A stretch of DNA of 64,000 nucleotides from Escherichia coli (lineage in GTDB: Bacteria > Pseudomonadota > Gammaproteobacteria > Enterobacterales > Enterobacteriaceae): the NCBI RefSeq assembly GCF_003018115.1, contig NZ_CP027457.1; one strand, written 5' to 3'. Of this stretch, positions 7,508 to 40,804 are shown piece after piece; position 1 is the stretch's first letter, and each line of letters opens with the position of its first letter. The notes beneath the pieces were generated by a model. The model searched no databases. It saw only the letters and a program-made list of their open reading frames with translations, and was not told where the DNA came from. Position numbers and translations under genes: made by a program.

Positions 7508-7531
7508 TAATCATTAACATATTAATGATTA
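7508..7531. promoter_or_regulatory. Inverted repeat TAATCATTAA-cata-TTAATGATTA in the hpaR-hpaG region; candidate HpaR operator
   Basis: Palindrome read directly, about 30 bp upstream of the hpaG start; HpaR is known to bind palindromic operators at Pg, but site identity is inferred. Confidence 0.35.
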
Positions 7532-7556
7532 AGATGATCGAATCCGAGGAGTGGTA

Positions 7557-8846: not shown

Positions 8847-10309
8847 AAAAAGTAAATCATTGGATCAACGGCAAAAATGTTGCAGGTAACGACTACTTCC
8901 AGACCACCAATCCGGCAACGGGTGAAGTGCTGGCGGATGTGGCCTCTGGCGGTGAAGCGGAGATCAATCAGGCGGTAGCGGCAGCGAAAGAGGCGTTCCC
9001 GAAATGGGCCAATCTGCCGATGAAAGAGCGTGCGCGCCTGATGCGCCGTCTGGGCGATCTGATCGACCAGAACGTGCCTGAGATCGCCGCGATGGAAACC
9101 GCGGACACGGGCCTGCCGATCCATCAGACCAAAAATGTGTTGATCCCACGCGCTTCTCACAACTTTGAATTTTTCGCGGAAGTCTGCCAGCAGATGAACG
9201 GCAAGACCTATCCGGTTGACGACAAGATGCTCAACTACACGCTGGTGCAACCGGTAGGCGTTTGTGCGCTGGTGTCACCGTGGAACGTGCCGTTTATGAC
9301 CGCCACCTGGAAGGTCGCGCCGTGTCTTGCGCTGGGCAATACCGCGGTGCTGAAGATGTCGGAACTCTCCCCGCTGACCGCTGACCGCCTGGGTGAGCTG
9401 GCGCTGGAAGCCGGTATTCCGGCGGGCGTGCTGAACGTGGTACAGGGCTACGGCGCAACCGCAGGGGATGCGCTGGTTCGTCATCATGACGTACGTGCCG
9501 TGTCGTTCACCGGCGGTACGGCCACCGGGCGCAACATCATGAAAAACGCCGGGCTGAAAAAATACTCCATGGAACTGGGCGGTAAATCGCCGGTGCTGAT
9601 TTTTGAAGATGCCGATATTGAACGCGCGCTGGACGCTGCCCTGTTCACCATCTTCTCAATCAACGGCGAACGCTGCACCGCCGGTTCGCGCATTTTTATT
9701 CAACAGAGCATCTATCCAGAATTCGTTAAACGCTTTGCCGAACGCGCCAACCGTCTGCGCGTGGGCGATCCGACCGATCCGAATACCCAGGTTGGGGCGC
9801 TTATCAGCCAGCAGCACTGGGAAAAAGTCTCCGGCTATATCCGTCTCGGCATTGAAGAAGGCGCAACCCTGCTGGCGGGCGGCCCGGATAAACCGTCCGA
9901 CCTGCCTGCGCACCTGAAAGGCGGCAACTTCCTGCGCCCAACCGTGCTGGCAGACGTTGATAACCGTATGCGAGTCGCCCAGGAAGAGATTTTCGGGCCG
10001 GTCGCCTGCCTGCTGCCGTTTAAAGACGAAGCCGAAGGCTTACGTCTGGCAAACGACGTGGAGTACGGCCTCGCGTCGTACATCTGGACGCAGGATGTCA
10101 GCAAAGTGTTACGCCTGGCGCGTGGCATTGAAGCTGGCATGGTGTTCGTCAACACCCAGAACGTGCGTGACCTGCGCCAGCCATTTGGCGGCGTAAAAGC
10201 CTCCGGCACCGGGCGTGAAGGCGGTGAGTACAGCTTCGAAGTGTTCGCGGAAATGAAGAACGTCTGCATTTCCATGGGCGACCATCCAATTCCGAAATGG
10301 GGAGTCTGA
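8843..10309 (+). CDS. hpaE: 5-carboxymethyl-2-hydroxymuconate semialdehyde dehydrogenase (NAD-dependent aldehyde dehydrogenase)
   Basis: 488-aa ORF with aldehyde dehydrogenase motifs (ELGGKSP, catalytic Cys in GERCTAGSR); start overlaps hpaG stop (ATGA). Confidence 0.9.
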   Translation: MKKVNHWINGKNVAGNDYFQTTNPATGEVLADVASGGEAEINQAVAAAKEAFPKWANLPMKERARLMRRLGDLIDQNVPEIAAMETADTGLPIHQTKNVLIPRASHNFEFFAEVCQQMNGKTYPVDDKMLNYTLVQPVGVCALVSPWNVPFMTATWKVAPCLALGNTAVLKMSELSPLTADRLGELALEAGIPAGVLNVVQGYGATAGDALVRHHDVRAVSFTGGTATGRNIMKNAGLKKYSMELGGKSPVLIFEDADIERALDAALFTIFSINGERCTAGSRIFIQQSIYPEFVKRFAERANRLRVGDPTDPNTQVGALISQQHWEKVSGYIRLGIEEGATLLAGGPDKPSDLPAHLKGGNFLRPTVLADVDNRMRVAQEEIFGPVACLLPFKDEAEGLRLANDVEYGLASYIWTQDVSKVLRLARGIEAGMVFVNTQNVRDLRQPFGGVKASGTGREGGEYSFEVFAEMKNVCISMGDHPIPKWGV

Positions 10310-10310
10310 T

Positions 10311-11162
10311 ATGGGTAAGTTAGCGTTAGCCGCCAAGATCACGCACGTACCGTCGATGTATCTCTCTGAACTGCCAGGGAAAAACCACGGTTGCCGCCAG
10401 GGCGCGATCGACGGGCATAAAGAGATCAGCAAGCGTTGCCGGGAAATGGGCGTCGATACCATTATCGTTTTCGATACCCACTGGCTGGTCAACAGTGCTT
10501 ATCACATCAACTGTGCAGACCATTTTGAAGGCGTCTACACCAGCAACGAGCTGCCGCATTTTATCCGCGATATGACCTACAACTACGAGGGCAACCCGGA
10601 GTTGGGGCAGCTTATTGCCGATGAAGCCTTAAAGCTCGGCGTGCGGGCAAAAGCGCACAACATTCCCAGCCTGAAACTGGAATACGGCACGCTGGTGCCA
10701 ATGCGCTACATGAATGAAGACAAGCACTTCAAAGTGGTTTCCATTTCAGCTTTCTGCACTGTTCACGATTTTGCCGACAGCCGCAAGCTGGGCGAGGCTA
10801 TTCTGAAAGCGATCGAACAGTACGACGGCACCGTGGCGGTCCTTGCCAGCGGTTCGTTATCGCACCGCTTTATTGACGATCAGCGAGCGGAAGAAGGGAT
10901 GAACAGCTACACCCGCGAGTTCGACCGCCAGATGGACGAGCGCGTGGTGAAGCTGTGGCGCGAAGGCCAGTTCAACGAGTTCTGCAATATGCTGCCGGAG
11001 TATGCCGACTACTGCTACGGCGAAGGCAATATGCACGACACGGTGATGCTGCTGGGGATGCTCGGCTGGGATAAATACGACGGCAAGGTGGAGTTTATCA
11101 CCGAGCTATTCCCAAGCTCTGGCACCGGTCAGGTTAACGCTGTTTTCCCGCTTCCCGCGTAA
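10311..11162 (+). CDS. hpaD: 3,4-dihydroxyphenylacetate (homoprotocatechuate) 2,3-dioxygenase, extradiol type
   Basis: 283-aa ORF starting 1 nt after the hpaE stop; LigB-type extradiol dioxygenase family by recall. Confidence 0.88.
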   Translation: MGKLALAAKITHVPSMYLSELPGKNHGCRQGAIDGHKEISKRCREMGVDTIIVFDTHWLVNSAYHINCADHFEGVYTSNELPHFIRDMTYNYEGNPELGQLIADEALKLGVRAKAHNIPSLKLEYGTLVPMRYMNEDKHFKVVSISAFCTVHDFADSRKLGEAILKAIEQYDGTVAVLASGSLSHRFIDDQRAEEGMNSYTREFDRQMDERVVKLWREGQFNEFCNMLPEYADYCYGEGNMHDTVMLLGMLGWDKYDGKVEFITELFPSSGTGQVNAVFPLPA

Positions 11163-11171
11163 GGACGTTTT

Positions 11172-11552
11172 ATGCCGCACTTTATCGTGGAATGTACTGA
11201 AAATATTCGTGAAGAAGCCCGCTTACCTGAGCTGTTTGCCAGTGTTAACACTGCACTGGCGGCAACGGGGATTTTTCCGCTTGGGGGAATACGTAGCCGG
11301 GCGCACTGGATCGATACCTGGCAAATGGCTGATGGCAAGCACGATTACGCCTTTGTGCATATGACGCTAAAAATCGGCAGCGGACGCAGTCTGGAAAGCC
11401 GTCAGGAAGTAGGCGAAATGCTGTTTGATCTGATTAAAACGCACTTCGCCTCACTGATGGAGAGCCGTTACCTGGCGCTTTCATTTGAGATTGCAGAGCT
11501 GCACCCGACGTTGAATTTCAAACAGAACAACGTACACGCGTTGTTTAAATAA
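11172..11552 (+). CDS. hpaF: 5-carboxymethyl-2-hydroxymuconate isomerase
   Basis: 126-aa ORF; position and size match HpaF. Confidence 0.85.
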
Positions 11553-11619
11553 ATTTGCACCAGCTTCCAGGCCGGATGATAAGGCGCAGCCGCATCCGGC
11601 AATGCCACAGGATATCGCT

Positions 11620-12423
11620 ATGTTCGATAAACACACCCACACCCTGATCGCCCAGCGTCTGGATCAGGCAGAAAAACAGCGCGAACAGATCCGCGCGATC
11701 TCGCTGGATTACCCGGAGATCACCATCGAAGACGCTTACGCGGTGCAGCGCGAATGGGTTCGCCTGAAAATAGCCGAAGGCCGTACGCTGAAAGGCCACA
11801 AAATCGGACTGACCTCGAAAGCGATGCAGGCCAGCTCACAGATCAGCGAACCAGATTACGGTGCATTGCTGGACGACATGTTCTTCCACGATGGCAGCGA
11901 TATCCCGACCGATCGCTTTATCGTACCGCGCATTGAAGTGGAGCTGGCTTTTGTGCTGGCAAAACCGCTGCGTGGGCCAAACTGCACGCTGTTCGACGTT
12001 TACAACGCCACGGACTATGTGATCCCGGCGCTGGAGCTGATCGACGCTCGCTGCCACAACATCGATCCGGAAACTCAGCGCCCGCGCAAAGTGTTCGACA
12101 CCATTTCTGATAACGCCGCCAACGCCGGAGTGATCCTCGGAGGTCGTCCGATCAAACCAGACGAACTGGATCTGCGTTGGATCTCCGCCCTCATGTATCG
12201 CAATGGCGTGATTGAAGAAACCGGCGTCGCCGCTGGCGTGCTGAATCACCCGGCAAACGGCGTGGCCTGGCTGGCGAACAAACTCGCACCGTATGACGTA
12301 CAACTGGAAGCCGGGCAAATCATTCTCGGTGGTTCGTTTACCCGCCCGGTTCCGGCGCGTAAGGGCGACACCTTCCACGTCGATTACGGCAACATGGGCT
12401 CCATTAGCTGCCGCTTTGTTTAA
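11620..12423 (+). CDS. hpaH: 2-oxo-hept-3-ene-1,7-dioate hydratase
   Basis: Translation from [14 protein letters not shown] (267 aa); start chosen at the second Met of the ORF-track entry. Confidence 0.85.
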
Positions 12424-12433
12424 GGAGAGAACG

Positions 12434-13222
12434 ATGGAAAACAGTTTTAAAGCGGCGCTGAAAGCAGGCCGTCCGCAGATTGGATTATGGCTGGGGCTGA
12501 GCAGCAGCTACAGCGCGGAGTTACTGGCCGGAGCAGGATTCGACTGGTTGTTGATCGACGGTGAGCACGCACCGAACAACGTACAAACCGTGCTCACCCA
12601 ACTACAGGCGATTGCGCCCTACCCCAGCCAGCCGGTGGTACGTCCGTCGTGGAACGATCCGGTGCAAATCAAACAACTGCTGGATGTCGGCACACAAACC
12701 TTACTGGTGCCGATGGTTCAAAACGCTGACGAAGCCCGTGAAGCGGTACGCGCCACCCGTTATCCCCCCGCCGGTATTCGCGGTGTGGGCAGTGCGCTGG
12801 CTCGCGCCTCGCGCTGGAATCGCATTCCTGATTACCTGCAAAAAGCCAACGATCAAATGTGCGTGCTGGTGCAGATCGAAACGCGTGAGGCAATGAAGAA
12901 CTTACCGCAGATTCTGGACGTGGAAGGGGTCGACGGCGTGTTTATCGGCCCGGCGGATCTGAGCGCCGATATGGGTTATGCCGGTAATCCGCAGCACCCG
13001 GAAGTACAGGTCGCCATTGAGCAGGCGATCGTGCAGATCCGCGAAGCGGGTAAGGCGCCGGGGATCCTGATCGCCAATGAGCAACTGGCAAAACGCTATC
13101 TGGAACTGGGCGCGCTGTTTGTCGCCGTCGGCGTTGACACCACCCTGCTCGCCCGCGCCGCCGAAGCGCTGGCAGCACGGTTTGGCGCGCAGGCTACAGC
13201 GATTAAGCCCGGCGTGTATTAA
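12434..13222 (+). CDS. hpaI: 4-hydroxy-2-oxo-heptane-1,7-dioate aldolase (HpcH/HpaI class II aldolase)
   Basis: Translation from [19 protein letters not shown] (262 aa) with AGGAGA 7 nt upstream; the ORF-track entry 12293..13222 starts upstream inside hpaH. Confidence 0.85.
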
Positions 13223-13223
13223 T

Positions 13224-13351
13224 GCCGGATGCGCTGCGCTTATCCGGCCTACACTCGCACCAAATCGTAGGCCTGATAAGGCGTTACGCCGCATCAGGCA
13301 AAAAGCCGTACCAAATCGCGGACCGGATAAGGCGTTTACGCCGCATCCGCC
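13224..13351. repeat. Cluster of three REP (BIME-type) elements between hpaI and hpaX
   Basis: GCCGGATGCGCTGCGCTTATCCGGCCTAC, GTAGGCCTGATAAGGCGTTACGCCGCATCAGGC and CGGACCGGATAAGGCGTTTACGCCGCATCCGCC read directly. Confidence 0.75.
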
Positions 13352-13396
13352 ATAAACCTTGTCGTACCCTACAAAAATCCCATTAGAGGAAGAAAA

Positions 13397-14773
13397 ATGA
13401 GCGACACCTCACCTGCCATACCGGAGAGTATCGATCCGGCGAATCAGCATAAAGCGCTGACTGCCGGACAACAGGCGGTTATTAAGAAGTTGTTTCGCCG
13501 CCTGATCGTCTTTCTGTTCGTGCTGTTTATCTTCTCGTTCCTTGATCGCATCAACATCGGCTTTGCCGGACTCACGATGGGACGCGACCTCGGTCTGAGC
13601 GCCACCATGTTTGGCCTCGCCACCACCCTGTTCTACGCCGCTTATGTCATCTTCGGCATTCCCAGCAACATTATGCTGAGTATTGTCGGTGCGCGACGCT
13701 GGATCGCCACCATCATGGTACTTTGGGGCATCGCCTCTACTGCCACCATGTTTGCCACTGGCCCCACCAGCTTGTACGTACTGCGTATACTGGTTGGCAT
13801 TACCGAAGCCGGCTTTCTGCCCGGTATTCTGCTCTATTTAACCTTCTGGTTTCCGGCCTACTTCCGCGCCCGTGCCAACGCCTTGTTTATGGTGGCAATG
13901 CCGGTAACGACAGCGTTGGGATCGATCGTTTCCGGCTACATTTTGTCGCTGGATGGCGTAATGGCATTAAAAGGCTGGCAGTGGCTGTTTTTGCTGGAAG
14001 GCTTCCCGTCGGTATTACTCGGCGTCATGGTGTGGTTCTGGCTTGATGACTCACCGGACAAAGCTAAGTGGCTGACGAAAGAAGACAAAAAATGCCTGCA
14101 AGAGATGATGGATAACGATCGTCTGACGCTGGTTCAGCCAGAGGGAGCCATCAGCCACCATGCCATGCAACAACGCAGCATGTGGCGGGAGATCTTCACT
14201 CCGGTGGTGATGATGTATACCCTGGCGTATTTCTGCCTGACCAACACACTTAGTGCGATCAGCATCTGGACACCGCAGATCCTGCAAAGCTTTAATCAGG
14301 GCAGCAGTAATATCACCATCGGCCTGCTGGCCGCCGTACCGCAGATTTGTACCATTCTCGGGATGATCTACTGGAGCCGTCACTCAGATCGCCGCCAGGA
14401 ACGAAGGCATCACACCGCCCTTCCTTATTTGTTCGCTGCCGCTGGTTGGTTACTGGCTTCGGCAACTGATCACAACATGATCCAGATGCTGGGGATCATT
14501 ATGGCTTCGACCGGATCATTCAGCGCAATGGCGATTTTCTGGACAACACCGGATCAGTCCATCAGCCTGCGGGCACGAGCGATCGGTATTGCGGTGATCA
14601 ACGCCACTGGCAACATTGGTTCAGCATTAAGTCCGTTTATGATCGGCTGGTTGAAAGATCTGACCGGCAGCTTTAACAGTGGATTGTGGTTTGTTGCCGC
14701 GCTGCTGGTGATTGGTGCAGGGATTATCTGGGCAATTCCAATGCAGTCCTCCCGTCCGCGAGCGACCCCGTAA
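13397..14773 (+). CDS. hpaX: 4-hydroxyphenylacetate permease (MFS)
   Basis: 458-aa polytopic membrane ORF within the hpa cluster. Confidence 0.85.
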   Translation: MSDTSPAIPESIDPANQHKALTAGQQAVIKKLFRRLIVFLFVLFIFSFLDRINIGFAGLTMGRDLGLSATMFGLATTLFYAAYVIFGIPSNIMLSIVGARRWIATIMVLWGIASTATMFATGPTSLYVLRILVGITEAGFLPGILLYLTFWFPAYFRARANALFMVAMPVTTALGSIVSGYILSLDGVMALKGWQWLFLLEGFPSVLLGVMVWFWLDDSPDKAKWLTKEDKKCLQEMMDNDRLTLVQPEGAISHHAMQQRSMWREIFTPVVMMYTLAYFCLTNTLSAISIWTPQILQSFNQGSSNITIGLLAAVPQICTILGMIYWSRHSDRRQERRHHTALPYLFAAAGWLLASATDHNMIQMLGIIMASTGSFSAMAIFWTTPDQSISLRARAIGIAVINATGNIGSALSPFMIGWLKDLTGSFNSGLWFVAALLVIGAGIIWAIPMQSSRPRATP

Positions 14774-14782
14774 GGAACGACG

Positions 14783-15673
14783 ATGTGTGACCGTCAGATT
14801 GCCAATATTGATATCAGCAAAGAGTACGATGAAAGCCTGGGCACGGACGATGTGCATTATCAGTCGTTCGCCCGCATGGCGGCATTTTTTGGCCGCCATA
14901 TGCTGCCACATCGCCACGAACAGTACTTTCAGATGCATTTCCTCAATAGCGGACAGATTGAGCTACAGCTTGACGATCATCGCTACTCGGTGGAAGCGCC
15001 CCTGTTTGTCCTGACGCCGCCGTCAGTACCTCATGCGTTTATTACGGAGTCTGACGCCGACGGTCATGTGTTGACGGTACGGGAAGATCTGATCTGGCCC
15101 CTGCTGGAAGTTCTTTATCCAGGCACTCGGGAAACCTTCGGCCTGCCGGGGATTTGCCTGTCACTGGCAGATAAACCCGACGAACTGGCGGCGCTGGAAC
15201 ACTATTGGCAACTGATAGAGCGGGAATCGGTGGAACAACTGCCTGGACGGGAACACACCCTGACGTTACTGGCACAGGCAGTGTTCACCCTACTGCTGCG
15301 TAACGCAAAACTCGACGATCATGCCGCCAGCGGAATGCGCGGAGAATTAAAACTGTTCCAGCGTTTTCATATGCTGATTGAAAGCCATTTTCATCAGCAC
15401 TGGACAGTACCAGATTACGCTAACGAACTGCATATCACCGAATCACGCCTCACGGACATCTGCCGCCGCTTTGCCAACCGTCCGCCAAAACGGTTGATTT
15501 TCGACAGGCAGCTGCGAGAAGCCAAACGGCTGCTGCTGTTTTCTGATAACGCCGTGAACAATATTGCCTGGCAACTCGGTTTTAAGGATCCGGCTTATTT
15601 TGCGCGCTTTTTTAATCGCTTAGTCGGTTGCTCGCCCAGTGCTTATCGCGCCAAAAAAGTACCTGTGACGTGA
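14783..15673 (+). CDS. hpaA: AraC/XylS-family activator of hpaBC
   Basis: 296-aa ORF with C-terminal AraC-type HTH (…DPAYFARFFNRLVGCSPSAYR…); immediately upstream of hpaBC. Confidence 0.85.
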   Translation: MCDRQIANIDISKEYDESLGTDDVHYQSFARMAAFFGRHMLPHRHEQYFQMHFLNSGQIELQLDDHRYSVEAPLFVLTPPSVPHAFITESDADGHVLTVREDLIWPLLEVLYPGTRETFGLPGICLSLADKPDELAALEHYWQLIERESVEQLPGREHTLTLLAQAVFTLLLRNAKLDDHAASGMRGELKLFQRFHMLIESHFHQHWTVPDYANELHITESRLTDICRRFANRPPKRLIFDRQLREAKRLLLFSDNAVNNIAWQLGFKDPAYFARFFNRLVGCSPSAYRAKKVPVT

Positions 15674-15923
15674 AAATCCCTTAGCCTTAACGGGAAACCA
15701 GGCATCACCTGCTATTCCCCTTTCTCCGCCTGGAGCAAGGGGATTTAGTAACGTTAAAAATCGCTAAAAGCGACCTCGATCACAAAACCGTACCCGACCT
15801 GAAAAGTACCAGCCATTGTCCCAAAAGTCTCTTCCCGTAATCGCCCCTGCAAGCTTCAATTGAATAACAAAAACAACACACAAAATTAACAATCGTATTC
15901 CGATTAATACTGTAGAGGTCGAC

Positions 15924-17486
15924 ATGAAACCAGAAGATTTCCGCGCCAGTACCCAACGTCCGTTCACCGGGGAAGAGTATCTGAAAAGCCTGCAGGATGG
16001 TCGCGAGATCTATATCTACGGCGAGAGAGTGAAAGACGTCACCACTCATCCGGCATTTCGTAATGCGGCAGCGTCTGTTGCCCAACTGTACGACGCGCTA
16101 CACAAACCGGAGATGCAGGACTCTCTGTGTTGGAACACCGACACCGGCAGCGGCGGCTATACCCATAAATTCTTCCGCGTGGCGAAAAGTGCCGACGACC
16201 TGCGCCAGCAACGCGATGCCATCGCTGAGTGGTCACGCCTGAGCTATGGCTGGATGGGCCGTACCCCAGACTACAAAGCTGCTTTCGGTTGCGCACTGGG
16301 CGCGAATCCGGGCTTTTACGGTCAGTTCGAGCAGAACGCCCGTAACTGGTATACCCGTATTCAGGAAACTGGCCTCTACTTTAACCACGCGATTGTTAAC
16401 CCACCGATCGATCGTCATTTGCCGACCGATAAAGTGAAAGACGTTTACATCAAGCTGGAAAAAGAGACTGACGCCGGGATTATCGTCAGCGGTGCGAAAG
16501 TGGTTGCCACCAACTCGGCGCTGACTCACTACAACATGATTGGTTTCGGCTCGGCACAAGTGATGGGCGAAAACCCGGACTTCGCACTGATGTTCGTTGC
16601 GCCAATGGATGCCGATGGCGTGAAATTAATCTCCCGCGCCTCTTATGAGATGGTCGCGGGTGCTACCGGCTCGCCGTACGACTACCCGCTCTCCAGCCGC
16701 TTCGATGAGAACGATGCGATCCTGGTGATGGATAACGTACTGATCCCTTGGGAAAACGTGCTGATCTACCGCGATTTCGATCGCTGCCGTCGCTGGACGA
16801 TGGAAGGCGGTTTTGCCCGTATGTATCCGCTGCAAGCCTGTGTGCGCCTGGCAGTGAAACTCGACTTCATCACGGCACTGCTGAAAAAATCACTCGAATG
16901 TACCGGCACCCTGGAGTTCCGTGGTGTGCAGGCCGATCTCGGTGAAGTGGTGGCGTGGCGCAACACCTTCTGGGCATTGAGTGACTCGATGTGTTCAGAA
17001 GCGACGCCGTGGGTCAACGGGGCTTATTTACCGGATCATGCTGCACTGCAAACCTATCGCGTACTGGCACCAATGGCCTACGCGAAGATCAAAAACATTA
17101 TCGAACGCAACGTTACCAGTGGCCTGATCTATCTCCCTTCCAGTGCCCGTGACCTGAACAATCCGCAGATCGACCAGTATCTGGCGAAGTATGTGCGCGG
17201 TTCGAACGGTATGGATCACGTCCAGCGCATCAAGATCCTCAAACTGATGTGGGATGCCATTGGCAGCGAATTTGGTGGTCGTCACGAGCTGTATGAAATC
17301 AACTACTCCGGTAGCCAGGATGAGATTCGCCTGCAATGTCTGCGCCAGGCACAAAGCTCCGGCAATATGGACAAGATGATGGCGATGGTTGATCGCTGCC
17401 TGTCGGAATACGACCAGAACGGCTGGACTGTGCCGCACCTGCACAACAACGACGATATCAACATGCTGGATAAGCTGCTGAAATAA
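15924..17486 (+). CDS. hpaB: 4-hydroxyphenylacetate 3-monooxygenase, oxygenase component (FADH2-dependent)
   Basis: 520-aa ORF MKPEDFRASTQRPFTGEEYLKSLQDGREIYIYGERV...; matches HpaB as recalled. Confidence 0.9.
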   Translation: MKPEDFRASTQRPFTGEEYLKSLQDGREIYIYGERVKDVTTHPAFRNAAASVAQLYDALHKPEMQDSLCWNTDTGSGGYTHKFFRVAKSADDLRQQRDAIAEWSRLSYGWMGRTPDYKAAFGCALGANPGFYGQFEQNARNWYTRIQETGLYFNHAIVNPPIDRHLPTDKVKDVYIKLEKETDAGIIVSGAKVVATNSALTHYNMIGFGSAQVMGENPDFALMFVAPMDADGVKLISRASYEMVAGATGSPYDYPLSSRFDENDAILVMDNVLIPWENVLIYRDFDRCRRWTMEGGFARMYPLQACVRLAVKLDFITALLKKSLECTGTLEFRGVQADLGEVVAWRNTFWALSDSMCSEATPWVNGAYLPDHAALQTYRVLAPMAYAKIKNIIERNVTSGLIYLPSSARDLNNPQIDQYLAKYVRGSNGMDHVQRIKILKLMWDAIGSEFGGRHELYEINYSGSQDEIRLQCLRQAQSSGNMDKMMAMVDRCLSEYDQNGWTVPHLHNNDDINMLDKLLK

Positions 17487-17503
17487 CGCAGCAGGAGGTT
17501 AAG

Positions 17504-18016
17504 ATGCAATTAGATGAACAACGCCTGCGCTTTCGTGACGCGATGGCCAGCCTGTCGGCAGCGGTAAATATTATCACCACCGAGGGCGACGCCGGACAAT
17601 GCGGGATTACGGCAACGGCCGTCTGCTCGGTCACGGATACCCCTCCGTCGCTGATGGTGTGCATTAACGCCAACAGTGCGATGAACCCGGTTTTTCAGGG
17701 CAACGGCAAGTTGTGCGTCAACGTCCTCAACCATGAGCAGGAACTGATGGCGCGCCACTTCGCGGGCATGACGGGCATGGCGATGGAAGAGCGTTTTAGC
17801 CTCTCGTGCTGGCAAAAAGGTCCGCTGGCGCAGCCGGTGCTAAAAGGTTCGCTGGCCAGTCTTGAAGGTGAGATCCGCGATGTGCAGGCGATTGGCACAC
17901 ATCTGGTGTATCTGGTGGAGATTAAAAACATCATCCTCAGTGCAGAAGGTCACGGACTTATTTACTTTAAACGCCGTTTCCATCCGGTGATGCTGGAAAT
18001 GGAAGCTGCGATTTAA
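17504..18016 (+). CDS. hpaC: 4-hydroxyphenylacetate 3-monooxygenase, NADH:flavin reductase component
   Basis: 170-aa ORF 17 nt after hpaB; flavin reductase-like domain. Confidence 0.9.
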   Translation: MQLDEQRLRFRDAMASLSAAVNIITTEGDAGQCGITATAVCSVTDTPPSLMVCINANSAMNPVFQGNGKLCVNVLNHEQELMARHFAGMTGMAMEERFSLSCWQKGPLAQPVLKGSLASLEGEIRDVQAIGTHLVYLVEIKNIILSAEGHGLIYFKRRFHPVMLEMEAAI

Positions 18017-18022
18017 GCTCCA

Positions 18023-26515: not shown

Positions 26516-28105
26516 ATGAACAATAACGATCTGGTCGCGAAGCTGTGGAAGCTGTGCGACAACCTGCGCGATGGCGGCGTTTCCTATCAAAACTACGTCA
26601 ATGAACTCGCCTCGCTGCTGTTTTTGAAAATGTGTAAAGAGACCGGGCAGGAAGCGGAATACCTGCCGGAAGGCTACCGCTGGGATGACCTGAAATCCCG
26701 CATCGGCCAGGATCAATTGCAGTTCTACCGTAACCTGCTGGTACATCTGGGCGCCGACAATCAAAAGCTGGTGCAGGCGGTGTTCCAGAACGTCAACACC
26801 ACCATTACCCAGCCAAAACAGTTGACCGAACTGGTCACAAATATGGATTCGCTGGACTGGTATAACGGTGCGCACGGTAAGTCGCGCGATGACTTCGGCG
26901 ATATGTACGAAGGGCTGTTGCAGAAGAACGCCAACGAAACCAAGTCTGGCGCGGGCCAGTACTTCACCCCGCGTCCGCTGATTAAAACCATTATTCATCT
27001 GCTGAAACCGCAGCCGCGTGAAGTGGTGCAGGACCCGGCAGCAGGTACGGCGGGCTTTTTGATTGAAGCCGACCGCTACGTTAAGTCGCAGACCAATGAT
27101 CTGGACGACCTTGATGGCGATACGCAGGATTTCCAGATCCACCGCGCGTTTATCGGCCTCGAACTGGTGCCCGGCACCCGTCGTCTGGCGCTGATGAACT
27201 GCCTGCTGCACGATATTGAAGGCAACCTCGACCACGGCGGCGCAATCCGTCTGGGCAACACTCTGGGTAGCGACGGCGAAAACCTGCCGAAGGCGCATAT
27301 TGTCGCCACTAACCCGCCGTTTGGCAGCGCCGCAGGCACCAACATTACCCGCACCTTTGTTCACCCGACCAGCAATAAACAGTTGTGCTTTATGCAGCAT
27401 ATTATCGAAACGCTGCACCCCGGCGGTCGTGCGGCGGTGGTGGTGCCGGATAACGTGCTGTTTGAAGGCGGCAAAGGCACCGACATTCGTCGTGACCTGA
27501 TGGATAAGTGTCATCTGCACACTATTCTGCGTCTGCCGACCGGTATTTTTTACGCGCAGGGCGTGAAAACCAACGTGCTGTTCTTTACCAAAGGCACGGT
27601 GGCGAACCCGAATCAGGATAAGAACTGCACCGATGATGTGTGGGTGTACGACCTGCGTACCAATATGCCGAGCTTCGGCAAGCGCACGCCGTTTACTGAC
27701 GAACATCTGCAGCCGTTTGAGCGGGTGTATGGCGAAGATCCCCACGGCTTAAGCCCGCGCACTGAAGGCGACTGGGAATTCGACGCAGAAAAAAGTGAAA
27801 TTGCCGACAGCGAAGAGAACAAAAACACCGACCAGCATCTGGCTACCAGCCGCTGGCGCAAGTTCAGCCGCGAGTGGATCCGCACCGCGAAATCCGATTC
27901 GCTGGATATCTCCTGGCTGAAAGATAAAGACAGCATTGACGCCGACAACCTGCCGGAGCCGGATGTATTAGCGGCAGAAGCGATGGGCGAGCTGGTACAG
28001 GCGCTGGGCGAACTGGATGCGTTGATGCGTGAACTGGGGGCGAGCGATGAGGCGGATGCACAGCGTCAGTTGCTGGAAGAAGCGTTTGGTGGGGTGAAGG
28101 AATGA
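26516..28105 (+). CDS. hsdM: Type I restriction-modification M subunit (N6-adenine methyltransferase)
   Basis: 529-aa ORF; catalytic NPPF motif and AdoMet-binding region (DPAAGTAGFL). Confidence 0.95.
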   Translation: MNNNDLVAKLWKLCDNLRDGGVSYQNYVNELASLLFLKMCKETGQEAEYLPEGYRWDDLKSRIGQDQLQFYRNLLVHLGADNQKLVQAVFQNVNTTITQPKQLTELVTNMDSLDWYNGAHGKSRDDFGDMYEGLLQKNANETKSGAGQYFTPRPLIKTIIHLLKPQPREVVQDPAAGTAGFLIEADRYVKSQTNDLDDLDGDTQDFQIHRAFIGLELVPGTRRLALMNCLLHDIEGNLDHGGAIRLGNTLGSDGENLPKAHIVATNPPFGSAAGTNITRTFVHPTSNKQLCFMQHIIETLHPGGRAAVVVPDNVLFEGGKGTDIRRDLMDKCHLHTILRLPTGIFYAQGVKTNVLFFTKGTVANPNQDKNCTDDVWVYDLRTNMPSFGKRTPFTDEHLQPFERVYGEDPHGLSPRTEGDWEFDAEKSEIADSEENKNTDQHLATSRWRKFSREWIRTAKSDSLDISWLKDKDSIDADNLPEPDVLAAEAMGELVQALGELDALMRELGASDEADAQRQLLEEAFGGVKE

Positions 28106-29430
28106 GTGCGGGGAAATTGCCAGAGGGGTGGGTTGAAACTCAATTAGAAAATATCGTTGATATTTTAGACTCAATGCGTGTCCCGGTTAATAATTCTGAG
28201 AGACAATCACGCATTGCAGGAAAAAAAGAAAATGAACTTTATCCCTATTTTGGTGCTACCGGTGAAGTCGGTAAAATTGATGATTATATTTTTGATGAAG
28301 AACTTGTTGCATTAGGTGAAGATGGTGTTCCTTTTTTTGATGGGCACAAAAATAAGGCTTATATGCTGTATGGTAAAACGTGGGTGAATAATCATGCTCA
28401 TGTAATAAGAGCTATCTCTGGACTAAGCCATAACAAGTATTTATGCCATTATCTTAACCAATTCGACTATCATGATTATGTAAACGGCGGGACCAGGCTT
28501 AAACTTACACAAGCGAATATGAGAAAACTACCTGTTAGTTTAGCGCCTCTCGCCGAACAAAAAATCATCGCAGAAAAACTCGATACGCTGCTGGCGCAGG
28601 TAGAGAGCACCAAAGCACGTCTTGAGCAAATCCCACAAATCCTGAAACGTTTTCGTCAGGCGGTGTTGGCTGCTGTTGTTAATGGAAAATTATCAAAGAA
28701 CACGAAGCAATGGGAAATATACTTATTAAAAAATCTTTGTACTAGCATTTCAGATGGCGATCATCAGGCTCCTCCAAAATCAGAAACAGGAGTGCCTTTC
28801 CTCGTAATCTCCGATGTTAATAAAGGGGTGATTGATTTTGATAATGTAACCAGATGGGTGCCTGAATCTTACTACCAATCGCTAAAAGAAATTAGAAAAC
28901 CATGCCAATATGATATTTTATATACAGTTACAGGTTCTTATGGAATACCTGTAATTGTTAACGACAATAAACCATTTTGTTTCCAGCGACATATTGCCAT
29001 CATCAAGCCAAACAGAAATTTAATTGATCATAGATTCTTAGCTTTCTATTTAGAATCACCACAAATTCTCAAACATGCAAGTGATGTTGCTACTGGGACC
29101 GCACAAAAAACAGTATCGCTGTCGAGTCTCCGAAATTTTGAGATCTCTGTTCCCCCTTTAAAAGAACAACACGAAATCGTTCGTCGCGTCGAGCAACTCT
29201 TCGCCTACGCCGACACTATTGAAAAACAGGTCAACAACGCCCTGGCCCGCGTCAACAACCTGACGCAATCCATTCTGGCAAAAGCGTTCCGTGGTGAACT
29301 CACCGCCCAGTGGCGGGCCGAAAACCCGGAATTGATCAGCGGAGAAAACAGCGCCGCCGCGTTGCTGGAGAAAATCAAAGCTGAACGCGCAGCCAGCGGG
29401 GGTAAAAAAGCCTCGCGTAAAAAATCCTGA
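28102..29430 (+). CDS. hsdS: Type I restriction-modification S (specificity) subunit, family IA, with two target-recognition domains unlike EcoKI
   Basis: 442-aa ORF overlapping the hsdM stop (ATGA). Conserved N-terminus MSAGKLPEGWV, central LAEQKIIAEKLDTLLAQVESTKAR... and C-terminal EIVRRVEQLFAYADTIEKQV... repeats match IA-family HsdS as recalled; the two TRD-coding stretches are markedly AT-rich. Confidence 0.9.
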   Translation: MSAGKLPEGWVETQLENIVDILDSMRVPVNNSERQSRIAGKKENELYPYFGATGEVGKIDDYIFDEELVALGEDGVPFFDGHKNKAYMLYGKTWVNNHAHVIRAISGLSHNKYLCHYLNQFDYHDYVNGGTRLKLTQANMRKLPVSLAPLAEQKIIAEKLDTLLAQVESTKARLEQIPQILKRFRQAVLAAVVNGKLSKNTKQWEIYLLKNLCTSISDGDHQAPPKSETGVPFLVISDVNKGVIDFDNVTRWVPESYYQSLKEIRKPCQYDILYTVTGSYGIPVIVNDNKPFCFQRHIAIIKPNRNLIDHRFLAFYLESPQILKHASDVATGTAQKTVSLSSLRNFEISVPPLKEQHEIVRRVEQLFAYADTIEKQVNNALARVNNLTQSILAKAFRGELTAQWRAENPELISGENSAAALLEKIKAERAASGGKKASRKKS

Positions 29431-29584: not shown

Positions 29585-29665
29585 TTAGCGCGGTGCGGAT
29601 GTGCGCCAACACACCCGCACCGCTCATCACAATCACTATTTATGGAGAATAGTAATCATGACTGA
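29585..29665 (-). ncRNA. symR: Approximate position of SymR antisense sRNA (type I antitoxin) opposite the symE 5' UTR/start codon
   Basis: Placed by established knowledge that SymR is transcribed antisense across the symE translation-initiation region; a 9-bp-stem hairpin GCGGTGCGG...CCGCACCGC (29590..29623) is visible. Ends are not determinable from sequence alone. Confidence 0.4.
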
Positions 29666-29999
29666 CACGCATTCTATTGCACAACCGTTCGAAGCAGAAG
29701 TCTCCCCGGCAAATAACCGTCAATTAACCGTGAGTTATGCGAGCCGCTACCCGGATTACAGCCGTATTCCCGCCATCACCCTGAAAGGTCAGTGGCTGGA
29801 AGCCGCCGGTTTTGCCACCGGCACGGCGGTAGATGTCAAAGTGATGGAAGACTGTATTGTCCTCACCGCCCAACCCGCCGCCGCCGAAGAGAGCGAACTG
29901 ATGCAGTCACTGCGCCAGGTGTGCAAACTGTCGGCGCGTAAACAAAAGCAGGTGCAGGAGTTCATTGGGATGATTGCGGGTAAACAGAAAGTCGCCTGA
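29658..29999 (+). CDS. symE: SOS-induced toxin SymE (AbrB/MazE-fold, type I TA system)
   Basis: Translation from [52 protein letters not shown]... (113 aa); start set at the internal Met with GGAGAA upstream, by recall of SymE. Confidence 0.85.
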
Positions 30000-30045
30000 T
30001 ACATTGACCCGGTAGCGCCAGTGCTACCGGGTATTATTCGCCGCG

Positions 30046-32139
30046 TTATACCAACGCGCTCTCCATCTGTTTTTCAAATGCCTGACGAATTAATCCCATA
30101 ATATAAGGAAGTTGTGCGAGGTCGCTGAAACCAATTTCCACATCGCCATTGCCCCATCGCCCAACATTTGTCACATCTTTGGCAATACCTTTCGGATCGA
30201 CCAGTTCATGAAACTGCATATTAAGCGACAATCGCAGTCGGCTTTTTTGCGGCACAACATCAACAAAATTCGTTTCAGCTTTAAACGCAATATAGAGCTT
30301 CAATACTTCCTGCGTGATCCCTGCGTCCAGGCGCATAACTTCATCGCTAAGATGATCGAATAACACCCGGCTATGCGAACCATCAGCAAGAAAAGGATAA
30401 TCACTCAGGCTGTAACTGGTTTTGTTTTCCGGCTGCCCCCGATAAACAGCTAAAACCTCTTCAGGAAGAGAAGGCGCTTGCCAGACCTGAACCGCGAGAT
30501 CGGCCAGACGATCGGCTCGGGCGTGAATGGCGGCTTCATCCCATTTTTCGCACTGTCCAAGACCGATATTCAAATAAAGCGGGCTATGCTTAAAGCCGTC
30601 TTCAATATCGCGTTTTTCCGCGAAAGGTCTGTCACTGTAGCGGGAGTTATAGCGCGTTAAAGTGAGATTCCCCAACGTATGTAACAGTTCTTTATGCACA
30701 CGCTGCCAGTCGCTTCCCAGCTCTTCGCGCCATTTAGCCGACAAATTTTCGTTCTGCGGCATAATATGTTCAATCGTAAACTCTTCCACGCGCTCTCTGC
30801 GTTTATCGTTTTCCAGTCGTCGTAACCAGTAGCTGCGACTACGGAAGTTATAGAGATCGCGAACTTTTAATTCCCGTTTAAATTCATCATCGTTGGGGAA
30901 ACGACGATATGAAGGTAGATTCAAAAAATGTACCTGAATACTTTCCAGATAATTTTCTTTATTAATAACTTTATAAAAAGTGGCAAATGTCTTGTTCAAA
31001 GAATTTGTCGGAATTGCACATACTGCACGGCGGAAAACATAAGATTCAATTAAACGAATTATGCTCAGGAAATCTTCGTGAGACAAATCGTCATTTTTAT
31101 AGTCATGATAAAGCGCCAGTAAGAAAGGATACGCCACATCAACCTTTAACTCGCGCAAATCCTGAAAAGCCGTAGCAAGCGATTTGTCACTTTCTTTTCC
31201 CAATGCCATTGCACAGTAATACTCCGCGTAGATGTGAATATCTTCAACCAGCCGATCTACGCCTTTTTCAGCAACACTCTGGCTGCGGGCATGGAGTTTA
31301 AATGCCTCATAGACTTCATCTGTCCGAGGGATCTCCCCCGTTTTTACCGTCAGATAATGACGCATAAAACTGTCAAAATATTCGCTGTAACCTTGCTGAC
31401 CAAAAGCGACTTCCATTGGACGCCAGTGATCTTCATACAACCGGGTTTGATGCTCTGGTTCGAGGCCCATCAGAATAAAATTGCGCACCAGATCGGCCTG
31501 ACTTAACGCCTTACCGGTGGAGTTCATACTTTCAAAAATCAGTTGCGGATTATCCTGACCACGATTAAGCGCCACATCGACAATTAATAACTTTGCTAAC
31601 CCACGACATAAGGGGATCAAGTCATCACCGAGTTTGGCAATTTGCTCATCAAAGAAAGTAAAGTTTTCCATTATTCGATGGGAATAGTTTTCTGGCATTG
31701 GTCTTTGTTTTATTAACGCCAGTAAACTGTCTTTATCAGTCTCGGTCAGCAGTAATTTAAAACCTTTCTCGCCGGACTCATAAGGATTGAGCAAATAATA
31801 ATTACGCAATTTCATTGCCGAAAAGCCATCAAAAACTTCGTCTTCGCCAAGATGGCGCGATAAAGCCTCAATCAGCAACATTGCGGTCGTCAGCCGCTGC
31901 TGACCATCAATGACCAGCAACGGAGAAATACCAGAAACCTGATACAATCCCTGCTCTATATAAACAACCGAACCGATAAAATGCGCTGATATATCGTCAC
32001 GCTTTCCTGCACGAATGATGTCGTCCCAAAGTTGCCGACATTGTTGCCCGGTCCATGAATAAGTCCGTTGATAAATGGGAATAACAAACTGCTGCGAACG
32101 TTTTAAAAAATCGAGTAGGCGAGCTTCTGTAGCTTTCAT
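30046..32139 (-). CDS. Single-chain GmrSD-family protein (N-terminal DUF262 ParB-like NTPase, C-terminal DUF1524 His-Me finger nuclease); putative type IV modification-dependent restriction endonuclease
   Basis: 697-aa ORF; N-terminal motifs FVIPIYQRTYSW and DGQQRLTT (DUF262); C-terminal EHIMPQ ... LGNLTL (DUF1524/HNH-like). Gene is AT-rich relative to flanks and sits where mcrBC lies in K-12. Confidence 0.8.
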   Translation of the reverse strand: MKATEARLLDFLKRSQQFVIPIYQRTYSWTGQQCRQLWDDIIRAGKRDDISAHFIGSVVYIEQGLYQVSGISPLLVIDGQQRLTTAMLLIEALSRHLGEDEVFDGFSAMKLRNYYLLNPYESGEKGFKLLLTETDKDSLLALIKQRPMPENYSHRIMENFTFFDEQIAKLGDDLIPLCRGLAKLLIVDVALNRGQDNPQLIFESMNSTGKALSQADLVRNFILMGLEPEHQTRLYEDHWRPMEVAFGQQGYSEYFDSFMRHYLTVKTGEIPRTDEVYEAFKLHARSQSVAEKGVDRLVEDIHIYAEYYCAMALGKESDKSLATAFQDLRELKVDVAYPFLLALYHDYKNDDLSHEDFLSIIRLIESYVFRRAVCAIPTNSLNKTFATFYKVINKENYLESIQVHFLNLPSYRRFPNDDEFKRELKVRDLYNFRSRSYWLRRLENDKRRERVEEFTIEHIMPQNENLSAKWREELGSDWQRVHKELLHTLGNLTLTRYNSRYSDRPFAEKRDIEDGFKHSPLYLNIGLGQCEKWDEAAIHARADRLADLAVQVWQAPSLPEEVLAVYRGQPENKTSYSLSDYPFLADGSHSRVLFDHLSDEVMRLDAGITQEVLKLYIAFKAETNFVDVVPQKSRLRLSLNMQFHELVDPKGIAKDVTNVGRWGNGDVEIGFSDLAQLPYIMGLIRQAFEKQMESALV

Positions 32140-32235
32140 TCTGACGTCTTTCCGTGAAACGATGATTTCGCAATAATAACCACTTCCTTGTGGAGGTTAT
32201 AGAGAAATCCTGTTTATCCGCGACGAACATACCCC

Positions 32236-32400
32236 TCACTCCACATCCTCCCTGCGTAACCCGATATCCCTCAACCGTTCATCACTCATCTGCTGTAACA
32301 CCCGTCGGGCCTGCATTTGCCGCCGCCAACGCCTCACCGCCTGCCAGAGTTGCACAAGTCTGATAAACGGCGTTTTGGCTTTGTTTTCGTAAAATTCCAT
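32236..32400 (-). CDS. yjiS: Small DUF1127-family protein
   Basis: 54-aa ORF MEFYENKAKTPFIRLVQLWQAVRRWRRQMQARRVLQQMSDERLRDIGLRREDVE, hand-translated (below the ORF-track size cut-off); AGGAGG 6 nt upstream of ATG. Confidence 0.7.
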   Translation of the reverse strand: MEFYENKAKTPFIRLVQLWQAVRRWRRQMQARRVLQQMSDERLRDIGLRREDVE

Positions 32401-34230: not shown

Positions 34231-35165
34231 TTAGTACTCGATCCATGGATCGCGCTTGCTTTCAGGCAAGGGTTGCTCTAATGCCTGCATTTGCTCTGCC
34301 GAAAGTCCAGTATATCGTTGTATCCATTCAGGATCCGCACCGTTCTGCAAAAGCAATCTAAGGAGGCGTTGTTCCCCTTCTTCTTTCCCCTTTTCCATCC
34401 CTAACAGCCATCCATCATTATGAATTCGCTCTGCAATCGTCATTATTCGCTCCCTTTGTTGTGGCATTCGACGGGTAAGTTCACTGATAAACTCATTAAA
34501 ACGCGCTTCATCGCCAGTCAGTAAAATGTAATTTAACAGCGCAGTTATCTGGCTGTCATTAGCACACTCTGTAACCAGTAATATTACCAGTTGATCGATA
34601 AGCCCCATCAGATCGCGCTGGCGAATATGCTTTTGGATCAACTCCAACAGGGCGACTCTGCGGTGCTGCACAATCTCGTCGTCAGGCACGACAGTGACAT
34701 CCACCAGCGGGAACGCTGCAGTATAAAGTTTCCGTGCAGTAGTCGGGTCGGCAAATTCGTCCAGCCAGCACAGGGACCAGGGATAAGGACTACGGCTACC
34801 GTGATAAAACAGCATCGGGATGACCAGCGGTAACGGCCGGCGTTTATCATGCTCGATATGGCGCTGCATCACCGCCATGGAATAGCGCATCAGGCGAAAG
34901 GCCATATGAATATCCTCACGGCTCTGATGTTCAATCACCACATAGATATAGCCATCACCTTCACGGGTCTCTACCGACCACAGAATATCGGAGTGTAGCT
35001 TTCATCGACAAAGCTGGCGGATTCCAGTTTTAAGCTGTCGAGATCGCACAGTTCACGTAAATCTTTGGGTAAGTGGATCTCCATAAAATCCCGCGCGGTG
35101 TCAGGATGCGTGAGAAAGGATTTAAATAATGCGTCATGCGGCGTGCTGGTCGTGAAGTTTGTCAT
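34231..35165 (-). pseudogene. rpnD: Rpn-family (YhgA-like, PD-(D/E)xK) recombination-promoting nuclease gene split by a -1 frameshift
   Basis: Two adjacent minus-strand ORFs in different frames (34971..35165 [17 protein letters not shown]...; 34231..34941 ...[20 protein letters not shown]...). Hand translation shows the downstream frame reads ...[27 protein letters not shown] with no gap, so one missing base in the GATGAAAGC A-run near 35000..35003 explains the split. Confidence 0.7.
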
Positions 35166-40492: not shown

Positions 40493-40804
40493 GATCTTTA
40501 AATATAACGCCCGGATAATTGGCTGCGCATAATCCTGCATGAAGGAAGTTGTATTAAATATCTCACCTGCCATGAAATATTTCCCATCCTCAAAATGAGC
40601 GATTTTTGATAGCACCTTCCTATTGCGCGTCTAAAATACAATATACATTTTATTATACTTAAACCCATAATTATGCATAGAGAAATAAAATGATTACCGG
40701 GTGAGATAATGATAAAAGATAAGTTTCTGTGCGAAGCTTATTTTTACCCATCCCCCTGATTATTTTAGATTTATAAGAACATTTCACAATTCAAGGATAA
40801 AAAT

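Follow-up and report, generated by a model that had tools for sequence, protein, structure and literature searches.

A GmrSD-superfamily gene with a DUF5655 tail in the mcrBC slot of the Escherichia coli immigration control region

We analyzed a 64,000-nucleotide stretch of an Escherichia coli genome (assembly GCF_003018115.1, contig NZ_CP027457.1), which we call the window, and within it a single gene that lies between symE and yjiS within the immigration control region (ICR), a variable island of E. coli restriction genes. Genes follow the order yjiA-mrr-hsdRMS-symE-[gene]-yjiS-yjiR-rpnD-mdtM-yjiN, where the annotation of the neighbors was mapped from the collinear record NZ_CP024269.1 (E. 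coli F8111-1SC3). In K-12 MG1655, symE and yjiS are separated by about 7.6 kb that contain mcrB, mcrC, the yjiV pseudogene and yjiT. Similarity to K-12 breaks off at the stop codons of symE and yjiS; therefore, a 2.2-kb cassette with sharp junctions replaces the K-12 block (Table 1). The cassette has the properties of an ICR cassette: it lies between yjiA and yjiN, has discrete junctions and alternates with the mcrBC genes of K-12.

The original prediction, which was made from the sequence of the window, had proposed horizontal exchange of a cassette in this slot on the grounds of low GC content and sharp borders. The exchange is supported by both properties, although the gene, called AT-rich at that time, is only moderately so: it has 44.0% GC, the window as a whole 50.7% and the genes at its flanks 52-55%. 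The sharp borders agree with the K-12 alignments. The “symE terminator” that was to mark one of them is a hairpin with predicted energies of -20.2 kcal/mol on the plus strand and -19.6 on the minus strand (z -3.2 and -2.6). A canonical T-run is absent, and the hairpin escaped the consensus scan, in which neither end of the gene showed a promoter or a terminator. This hairpin sits in cassette-specific sequence, and K-12 has a different hairpin there.

The gene consists of one ATG-initiated open reading frame (ORF) of 697 amino acids, which is fully open in both the ORF list and the translation of the window, as the original prediction had stated. Searches with hidden Markov models recovered the two domains that had been named, GmrSD_N (DUF262) and GmrSD_C (DUF1524), but that architecture was incomplete, because a third domain, DUF5655, had been missed (Table 1). 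Judging by sequence, a 697-codon frame with such Pfam E-values is far beyond chance, and the assignment to the GmrSD superfamily (DUF262 plus DUF1524) is near certain. No NCBIfam family matched the protein at E ≤ 0.01. The full-length AlphaFold2 (AF2) model has a mean predicted local distance difference test (pLDDT) score of 90.8 and a predicted template modeling (pTM) score of 0.78. In its secondary structure, the helices of the middle region span residues 228-406, mostly with pLDDT above 90. The identical 697-amino-acid protein occurs on 221 public contigs (e.g., CAD6017225.1, UniRef A0A1X3J7B0_ECOLX), and its database name is only “DUF262 domain-containing protein”.

The catalytic motifs IPIYQR (residues 20-25), VIDGQQRLTT (residues 76-85), EHIMPQ and LGNLTL (residues 489-494) are all intact and, as anticipated, free of inactivating changes. 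In an alignment of 68 homologs in which we scored residue conservation, P21, Q24, R25, W29, D78, Q80, Q81 and R82 are invariant, as are P461 and N491, while E457, H458, Q462 and N498 are nearly so. The DUF1524 motif set is present as IEHIMPQ (456-462), LGNLTLTRYN (489-498) and WDEAAIHARADRLADLAVQVW (533-553). Machnicka et al. (2015, PMC4619093) listed (E/D)HxxPQ, L(G/A)NLxL...N, NxxFxxKK and W...W as motifs of DUF1524. The motifs DGQQRLTT, EHxxPQ, LGNLxL and W...W from that work are all found in our protein, and NxxFxxKK is merely approximated by D503-R-P-F-A-E-K-R. The residues on which DndI, HEC-06 and Eco94GmrSD depend are conserved; from this, the protein is predicted to be a metal-dependent endonuclease that is stimulated by nucleoside triphosphates (NTPs).

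Table 1. Features of the cassette and its borders (window coordinates; E, Pfam E-value)
Feature	Position	Strand	Basis or detail
symE, conserved left anchor	29658..29999	+	ORF list and collinear annotation
Left junction	29997..30000	.	K-12 similarity stops at the symE stop codon (pairwise alignment)
10-bp GC-rich hairpin between the convergent symE and nuclease stops, candidate bidirectional terminator	30007..30032	.	
Complete coding sequence	30046..32139	-	ATG 32139-32137, stop 30048-30046; GmrSD_N, helical middle, GmrSD_C and DUF5655
DUF5655, residues 591-690	30070..30369	-	Pfam PF18899, E 1.8e-12
GmrSD_C/DUF1524 His-Me finger nuclease domain, residues 415-547	30499..30897	-	Pfam PF07510, E 1.6e-26
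LGNLTLTRYN, residues 489-498, second half of the His-Me finger	30646..30675	-	Homolog alignment
EHIMPQ, residues 457-462, predicted (D/E)HxxP catalytic motif	30754..30771	-	Sequence
All-helical middle, residues 226-410, joins both catalytic domains	30910..31464	-	AF2 model
GmrSD_N/DUF262 (ParB/Srx-like NTPase domain), residues 9-222	31474..32115	-	Pfam PF03235, E 4.1e-34
DGQQR, residues 78-82, predicted NTP-hydrolysis motif	31894..31908	-	Sequence; invariant in the homolog alignment
GGAAAG, candidate Shine-Dalgarno, 8 nt upstream of the ATG	32148..32153	-	Sequence only
Right junction	32230..32236	.	K-12 similarity returns ~3 nt beyond the yjiS stop, ~32232 (pairwise alignment)
yjiS (DUF1127), conserved right anchor, co-oriented, directly upstream of the nuclease gene	32236..32400	-	ORF list, K-12 alignment

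The DUF5655 tail was also modeled alone (residues 575-697, pLDDT 95.8). In this model, a helix is followed by an antiparallel sheet of five strands, which bears a long conserved loop, D648-P-x-G...G-x-G-N-G, and then by a long C-terminal helix. Its fold is closest to the double-wing domains of YdhG, YjbR and the C-terminal domain of MotA, including a MotA-DNA complex. YjbR has been described as having a double-wing DNA-binding motif, and the C-terminal domain of MotA binds T4 middle-promoter DNA. Given that the modeled fold is the double-wing of these proteins, it is reasonable to suppose that DUF5655 probably binds DNA as well. Its conservation is somewhat lower than that of the catalytic domains (40% mean identity with the query versus 49-50%). 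It is missing from some close relatives of about 560 amino acids, and in others it is set apart by an insertion. Since two longer relatives have an insertion and then still end in DUF5655, and one relative carries an unassigned tail, there is no C-terminal module swap that would be informative about specificity. DUF5655 is the only part of the protein that the PADLOC candidate PDC-S18 matches, and the domain is a recurrent module in defense genes, which the present gene makes experimentally tractable in E. coli. A literature search on DUF5655 yielded one irrelevant paper.

Among intact E. coli alleles, the ratio of nonsynonymous to synonymous substitution rates (dN/dS) is 0.05-0.09; therefore, strong purifying selection acts on the protein in its full length. 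This is a real and intact gene that selection maintains. Of 5426 complete E. coli genomes, about 1409 (about 26%) carry it, compared with 597 (11%) for the K-12 mcrBC genes, so the mcrBC state of K-12 is the minority. By megablast, there are matches in 1,480 of the 5,426 genomes; coverage is 80% or more in 1,358 of them, and identity lies at 95-99% in about 1,400. A 2025 EcoSal Plus review lists GmrSD in 12% and McrBC in 6% of 9,040 ICR loci (Table 3 therein, PMC12707154). This 2:1 ratio is the one seen among complete genomes.

The cassette had been sighted before. He et al. (2015, section 17 and Fig. 8, PMC4437046) reported GmrSD homologs in place of mcrBC in the ICRs of many pathogenic E. 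coli, and gave as an example the 733-amino-acid APECO1_2080 of strain APEC O1, which is 24% identical to Eco94GmrSD and whose neighbors they list as a transposase-like gene, an endoribonuclease, hsdS, hsdM, hsdR, mrr and a GTPase. Starting at an upstream Met, the APECO1_2080 frame stays open through 733 codons. Counted from MKATEARL it has 697 amino acids, of which 686 (98%) are identical to the window protein; therefore, it is the ortholog of our gene. Thus, the ortholog was named in 2015 and the cassette class was tabulated in 2025. A literature search with ortholog locus tags found only He et al. 2015; neither that paper nor the 2025 review holds an experiment on the protein. Hence, the original prediction was right to call the enzyme uncharacterized, but overstated its novelty. 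In APEC O1 (L027 17482-19707; we number the sampled genomic loci with an L) and the related strains L007-L010, yjiS is truncated, so the nuclease frame opens 36 codons farther upstream, which accounts for the length of 733 amino acids in older annotations. APEC O1 also lacks yjiR and mdtM between rpn and yjiN.

Annotation of the gene is misleading. The Prokaryotic Genome Annotation Pipeline (PGAP) calls a 387-amino-acid “GmrSD restriction endonuclease domain-containing protein” from the internal Met311 (window 30046-31209), together with a second feature, “DUF262 domain-containing protein”, that is flagged as an incomplete or frameshifted pseudogene. This split recurs in each further E. coli genome sampled as well as in the collinear record, including loci with intact ORFs of 697 or 699 codons (L001, L004, L005, L007-L011 and L027). 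According to translation of the DNA, the full frame is open in eight of ten sampled loci and also in APEC O1. The split annotation of intact copies probably represents evidence propagated from the frameshift allele of the heavily sequenced O157:H7 lineage. Because RefSeq splits an intact ORF, defense censuses that rely on annotated proteins are likely to under-count or mis-score the gene.

To place the protein within its superfamily, we compared it with known systems by PADLOC models, a PDB profile search, Foldseek, BLASTP and hhalign. The original prediction had suggested a check with defense-system profiles, and these match strongly. The best PADLOC model is Orf5 PDLC02693 (E 1.9e-223, 741 bits, residues 10-553), followed by other Orf5 models. 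The HEC-06 models PDLC04157, PDLC04155 and PDLC04154 match residues 14-554 over nearly their whole length (E 7e-67 to 2e-61). The full-length matches to Orf5 and HEC-06 also take in the helical middle region, while the SspE and mREase_IV models match only partially. In the PDB profile search, DndI (9JFL) is first, with E 4.4e-39 over residues 6-555, and SspE is next (E 5e-22). Foldseek on the full-length model gives the same order (DndI, E 1.3e-17; SspE, 1e-14). Judging from its name, the PADLOC family Orf5 presumably denotes the “ORF5” gene of Salmonella Cerro 87, which is flanked by dptB-E and dptFGH (Xu et al. 2010, PMC2978375) and was later renamed DndI (Tang et al. 2024, PMC11662687).

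These comparisons place the protein on the side of DndI, SspE and HEC-06 and not on that of BrxU or the classical GmrSD enzymes, because BrxU is absent from the PDB searches, aligns only N-terminally and hits HEC-05 models. BrxU/HEC-05 (pEFER, 7P9K) is also a DUF262-DUF1524 protein with DGQQR, and is embedded in a BREX operon and complementary to BREX. However, BLASTP aligns it with our protein at 24% identity over just 88 amino acids, and hhalign (94.8%, E 5e-8) covers only about 205 N-terminal columns. BrxU matches HEC-05 models and no Orf5 or HEC-06 model, whereas the window protein matches no HEC-05 model and reads QLWDD at the position of the BrxU motif RLFDS. Neither sequence nor fold searches of the PDB with the window protein returned BrxU. 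Based on this direct comparison, we rejected a BrxU-like reading. An identity with Eco94GmrSD was also rejected, as that enzyme is prophage-borne, has 629 amino acids and is 24% identical to the ortholog. The original prediction was too confident of a kinship with BrxU and GmrSD and of modification dependence. The wider label “GmrSD/BrxU/SspE-type modification-dependent” is correct as to superfamily, but merges two opposite logics, since SspE and DndI attack unmarked DNA.

HEC-06 has a similar design: a single-chain protein with DUF262, a helical linker and DUF1524, with DGQQR and EHxxP motifs and, like our protein, without the BrxU RLFDS motif. Its residues Q79/R80 and E471/H472 correspond to Q81/R82 and E457/H458. 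Payne et al. (2024, bioRxiv 10.1101/2024.01.29.577857) found by the mutations Q79A and R80A that these residues are essential, and likewise E471 and H472. HEC-06 is a stand-alone gene that blocks T4 and is found embedded in Hma systems, and a Bacteroides homolog protects against T4, but not against unmodified T4-GT7. However, HEC-06 has only about 560 amino acids and, judging by the length of the PADLOC profile, no DUF5655, and the genomic setting differs (Hma versus the ICR or Type I operons). Because HEC-06 scores below Orf5 (224 bits compared with 741 for the best Orf5 sub-model), we regard the window protein as belonging to a sister clade of HEC-06 rather than as a close member.

DndI shares both catalytic domains, yet is only about 19% identical to the window protein. 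Its R87, E507-H508 and N541 align with R82, E457-H458 and N498. DndI is an ATPase and nickase for which R87 was found essential (R87A), and the N541A mutant loses nuclease activity and defense (PMC11662687). By contrast with our gene and its additional DUF5655, DndI belongs to dndBCDE-dndFGH, to which its function is tied, and self DNA with phosphorothioate (PT) modification restrains it. SspE (6JIV, 7DRS) also has the DUF262 NTPase and the DUF1524 nuclease, but aligns only in the N-terminal residues ~3-101 and the catalytic core; its 771 amino acids include a different C-terminal half, and it is coupled to single-stranded PT modification by SspABCD. The GmrSD proteins of Eco94, EcoCT596 and UTI89 share the Pfam architecture, the (D/E)H...N site and the predicted NTP stimulation, and their biological role would be shared as well if the window protein is modification-dependent. 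In Eco94GmrSD, the equivalents of E457 and H458 (D507, H508) are essential, and the prototypes are Type IV enzymes for DNA with 5-hydroxymethylcytosine (5hmC) or its glucosylated form (glc-5hmC) (He et al. 2015, PMC4437046). However, they are prophage-borne, have about 604-629 amino acids and lack DUF5655; their specificity and their sensitivity to the T4 inhibitor IPI* are not transferable to the window protein. McrBC shares the symE-yjiS slot and a presumed modification-dependent role in the ICR, but is an unrelated two-subunit, GTP-dependent AAA+/PD-(D/E)xK system that is rarer in complete E. coli genomes.

The three-domain form of about 700 amino acids is widespread. It has more than 8,000 close matches, with at least 70% identity across Gammaproteobacteria and Kiritimatiella, and 2,760 representatives below E 1e-30 at the level of 50% clusters. 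Copies with 52-65% identity are on plasmids of Sulfitobacter, Nostoc, Planktothrix, Picosynechococcus and Arthrobacter, and one homolog is on a phage-like Anaerosphaera (Firmicutes) contig. We viewed 12 homolog contigs, of which 9 were informative; the remaining three, from metagenomic representatives at the 50% level (P0150, P0154, P0193), are 2-4 kb in length. In five of the nine non-E. coli genomes, the homolog lies within or directly after a Type I operon, and in one it is next to BREX. In Kiritimatiella, Salinivibrio, Halopseudomonas and Polycyclovorans, homologs of 70-73% identity (L012 8001-10103; L022, L024 and L025 7001-9103) sit on the strand of hsdS and hsdR, between these two genes, and stop and start codons overlap. 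Such operons sometimes also include Abi_C, Abi_2, Fic or AAA_13 genes. The Oceanimonas homolog is directly 3′ of hsdR, and the homolog in the Citrobacter ICR is convergent to hsdR-S-M. Outside Type I loci, one homolog follows brxL (BREX) in a metagenome-assembled genome and the Nitrincola homolog is beside Mks-like genes. A more distant homolog (P0243, 39% identity) is next to a helix-turn-helix regulator, with no recognizable defense genes, on a metagenomic contig with an integrase and a resolvase. Homologs in other taxa thus adjoin Type I restriction-modification (R-M), BREX or Mks-like genes rather than dnd. According to Payne et al. (bioRxiv 10.1101/2024.01.29.577857), Type I and Hma systems often harbor embedded GmrSD-like genes. 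The recurrent embedding in Type I loci fits this pattern, which supports a role complementary to Type I restriction, and the contexts also fit the “embedded complementary Type IV” arrangement reported for BrxU and for GmrSD-like genes.

Within E. coli, we find the gene beside three Type I families: Type IA in the window and APEC O1, Type IB in O157:H7 and a third in GF60. The E. coli copies are convergent to hsd. Both the variety of Type I neighbors and this orientation argue for autonomous action. No dedicated methyltransferase is next to the gene in the window or the collinear record. The GF60 gene (L011 6001-8100) represents a second allele class of 699 amino acids and 76-82% amino acid identity, which is found elsewhere in the ICR and is also known from Citrobacter (L015/L016 8001-10100). 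The GF60 allele itself is 76% identical and is located at the opposite end of the ICR beside brnA/Fic and a different Type I system. This class adjoins a different Type I family (HsdM of ~780 amino acids) and brnT/brnA, which suggests a joint arrival of the gene and that Type I system in the enterobacterial ICR, followed by a recombination that placed the gene next to symE.

With moderate confidence, we favor the view that the gene encodes an autonomous, single-chain ICR restriction enzyme against phages and plasmids, which takes the place of mcrBC, is driven by NTPs and has modified DNA as its target. The DUF262 domain would bind and hydrolyze NTP via DGQQR and thereby gate the enzyme, and the DUF1524 His-Me finger (E457-H458...N491/N498) would nick or cleave DNA in a manner dependent on Mg2+ or Mn2+. 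DUF5655 may add a DNA contact or read the target. This target would be phage-type base-modified DNA that escapes the neighboring Type I system, such that a Type IV logic complements HsdRMS. HEC-06 blocks T4 and depends on its DGQQR and EH motifs, and by this analogy modified DNA is the more probable target; GmrSD, BrxU and HEC-06 all act on modified phage DNA. The ICR setting beside a Type IA hsdRMS and mrr favors a restriction role, and autonomy is favored because the 64-kb region has no dnd or ssp genes, the gene is far commoner in E. coli than Dnd and it has three kinds of Type I neighbor.

Several observations weigh against this reading. The closest solved relatives, DndI and SspE, are not modification-dependent, so it is only from others that we infer this property. 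DndI and SspE are NTPases that are stimulated by the host PT mark, are released from self DNA and nick unmarked DNA (PMC11662687). The classical modification-dependent members are remote (BrxU, 24% identity over 88 residues; Eco94GmrSD, 24% to the ortholog, PMC4437046). The literature searched holds no activity data on the protein or its clade at 50% identity or more. Conservation across phyla is unusually high for an arms-race gene, with at least 70% identity to Kiritimatiella and 58-65% to copies on alphaproteobacterial and cyanobacterial plasmids and on the phage-like Firmicutes contig. Some alleles are broken: that of O157:H7 (ECP19-198, L002 9001-11093) has a 1-nt deletion at nucleotide 800 of the gene, leaving products of 293 and 387 amino acids, and strain L006 (301-2394) has a nonsense codon at position 239. 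Finally, a consensus promoter scan found no promoter in the 96-nt spacer to yjiS. Read-through from yjiS is therefore possible. Four promoter-like matches lie inside the gene and are no commoner than in shuffled sequences.

The kinship with DndI and SspE raises the question of whether the protein might follow their logic, attacking unmarked DNA while an epigenetic mark holds it off host DNA. The mark could be the N6-methyladenine (m6A) of HsdMS, a candidate because the gene is so often embedded in Type I operons, or PT where dnd or ssp genes are present, and the enzyme would then be a second restriction arm instead of a Type IV system. DndI and SspE are indeed the best PDB matches by both profile and fold, Orf5 is the best PADLOC family and high conservation across phyla fits the recognition of a generic mark. 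Furthermore, the gene lies in hsdS-[gene]-hsdR order with overlapping codons in Kiritimatiella, Salinivibrio, Halopseudomonas and Polycyclovorans, and the PT-sensing Tyr of DndI (Y25) aligns with Y23. However, Y23 is part of the general DUF262 motif P-x-YQR. The 64-kb window lacks dnd and ssp genes, and none are annotated in the collinear region. The gene is in about 26% of E. coli, while Dnd is rare (2% of hotspot-37 loci, PMC12707154). The E. coli copies adjoin three Type I families of different specificities and are convergent to hsd with symE between them, the homologs in Nitrincola and next to BREX in the metagenome-assembled genome have no Type I neighbor, and the related HEC-06 proteins work alone in E. 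coli without R-M systems. Therefore, we consider self-mark sensing unlikely. The broader proposal that the whole GmrSD_N-GmrSD_C-DUF5655 clade consists of accessory effectors coupled to Type I R-M, acting either as methyl-mark readers that nick unmarked DNA or in the manner of PrrC, is improbable to a similar extent; if true, it would also explain the unusual conservation across phyla.

The prrC gene occupies the position between hsdS and hsdR in EcoprrI. It is embedded in a Type I locus and senses the inhibition of restriction (PMC12707154). A comparable guard would be latent, possibly by means of DUF5655, and would fire when Ocr, ArdA or a Stp-like factor disables HsdRMS. The translationally coupled hsdS-hsdR position in four distant taxa is consistent with such a guard, as are the abortive-infection-type genes (Abi_C, Abi_2, Fic, AAA_13) in the same operons. 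Nevertheless, we view it as very unlikely, given that the Type I families next to the E. coli copies are three unrelated ones and hsd is not co-transcribed with these copies, that some homologs have no Type I neighbor at all, that nothing in the sequence suggests a protein-sensing module and that the fold relatives of DUF5655 are DNA-binding or small-ligand domains. There is equally little to recommend the idea that the gene is a decaying or silent remnant without function in this strain. The fragment and incomplete pseudogene annotated by PGAP in the collinear record and every sampled genome, the genuine frameshift and nonsense alleles of O157:H7 (L002) and L006, the many N-terminal fragments and the lack of a detected promoter could all be taken to indicate decay. 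However, the frame of 697 or 699 codons is open in the window, in eight of ten sampled genomes and in APEC O1, dN/dS is 0.05-0.09 over the whole length, all catalytic residues are intact and the split annotation is probably an artifact of the O157:H7 frameshift allele.

Inactivation nevertheless appears to be recurrent. Among the full-length matches in a spread megablast sample, 6 of 21 have the length of 2,093 nt typical of the O157-type deletion. The protein clusters contain many N-terminal fragments of varied length, which suggests repeated independent inactivation. The split products in O157:H7 recall GmrS and GmrD of CT596, which are split yet active.

In about a quarter of complete E. 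coli genomes, this gene stands in the place that mcrBC takes in the laboratory strain. The carriers include APEC O1, an extraintestinal pathogenic E. coli strain, and, in frameshifted form, O157:H7. Knowledge of the target would bear on the host range of phages in therapy, on the transformability of clinical isolates with modified or unmodified DNA and on why an embedded nuclease is paired with Type I systems.

We now note properties of the surrounding DNA. A prophage or plasmid origin of the window copy was considered and rejected, as there are no mobile-element genes at its flanks. Two high-identity “plasmid” matches are E. coli records of 373 kb and 4.9 Mb, which are probably chromosomal. 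The hsdS gene (28102-29430) encodes 442 amino acids and has 41.7% GC, compared with 54.6% for hsdR and hsdM; the EcoKI HsdS of K-12 has 464 amino acids. The Type IA system of the window thus has a different, presumably exchanged, specificity subunit. The rpnD gene (yjiP/yjiQ, 34231-35165) consists of two ORFs and is annotated as frameshifted in the collinear record; the K-12 copy is also a pseudogene.

A sharp trough in GC content (31-35%) at ~40500-42900 coincides with a gene for a 700-amino-acid pentapeptide-repeat protein, which resembles EspX6, a type III secretion system effector in O157:H7. This gene is located between ytiA/yjiL and yjiK and is absent from K-12. Two further regions are additional relative to K-12, with coordinates mapped from NZ_CP024269.1: the hpa cluster for 4-hydroxyphenylacetate catabolism between btsT and tsr (~6840-18020), and the inverse autotransporter gene iatD, of 1,746 amino acids, between kptA and yjiJ (~45475-50715).

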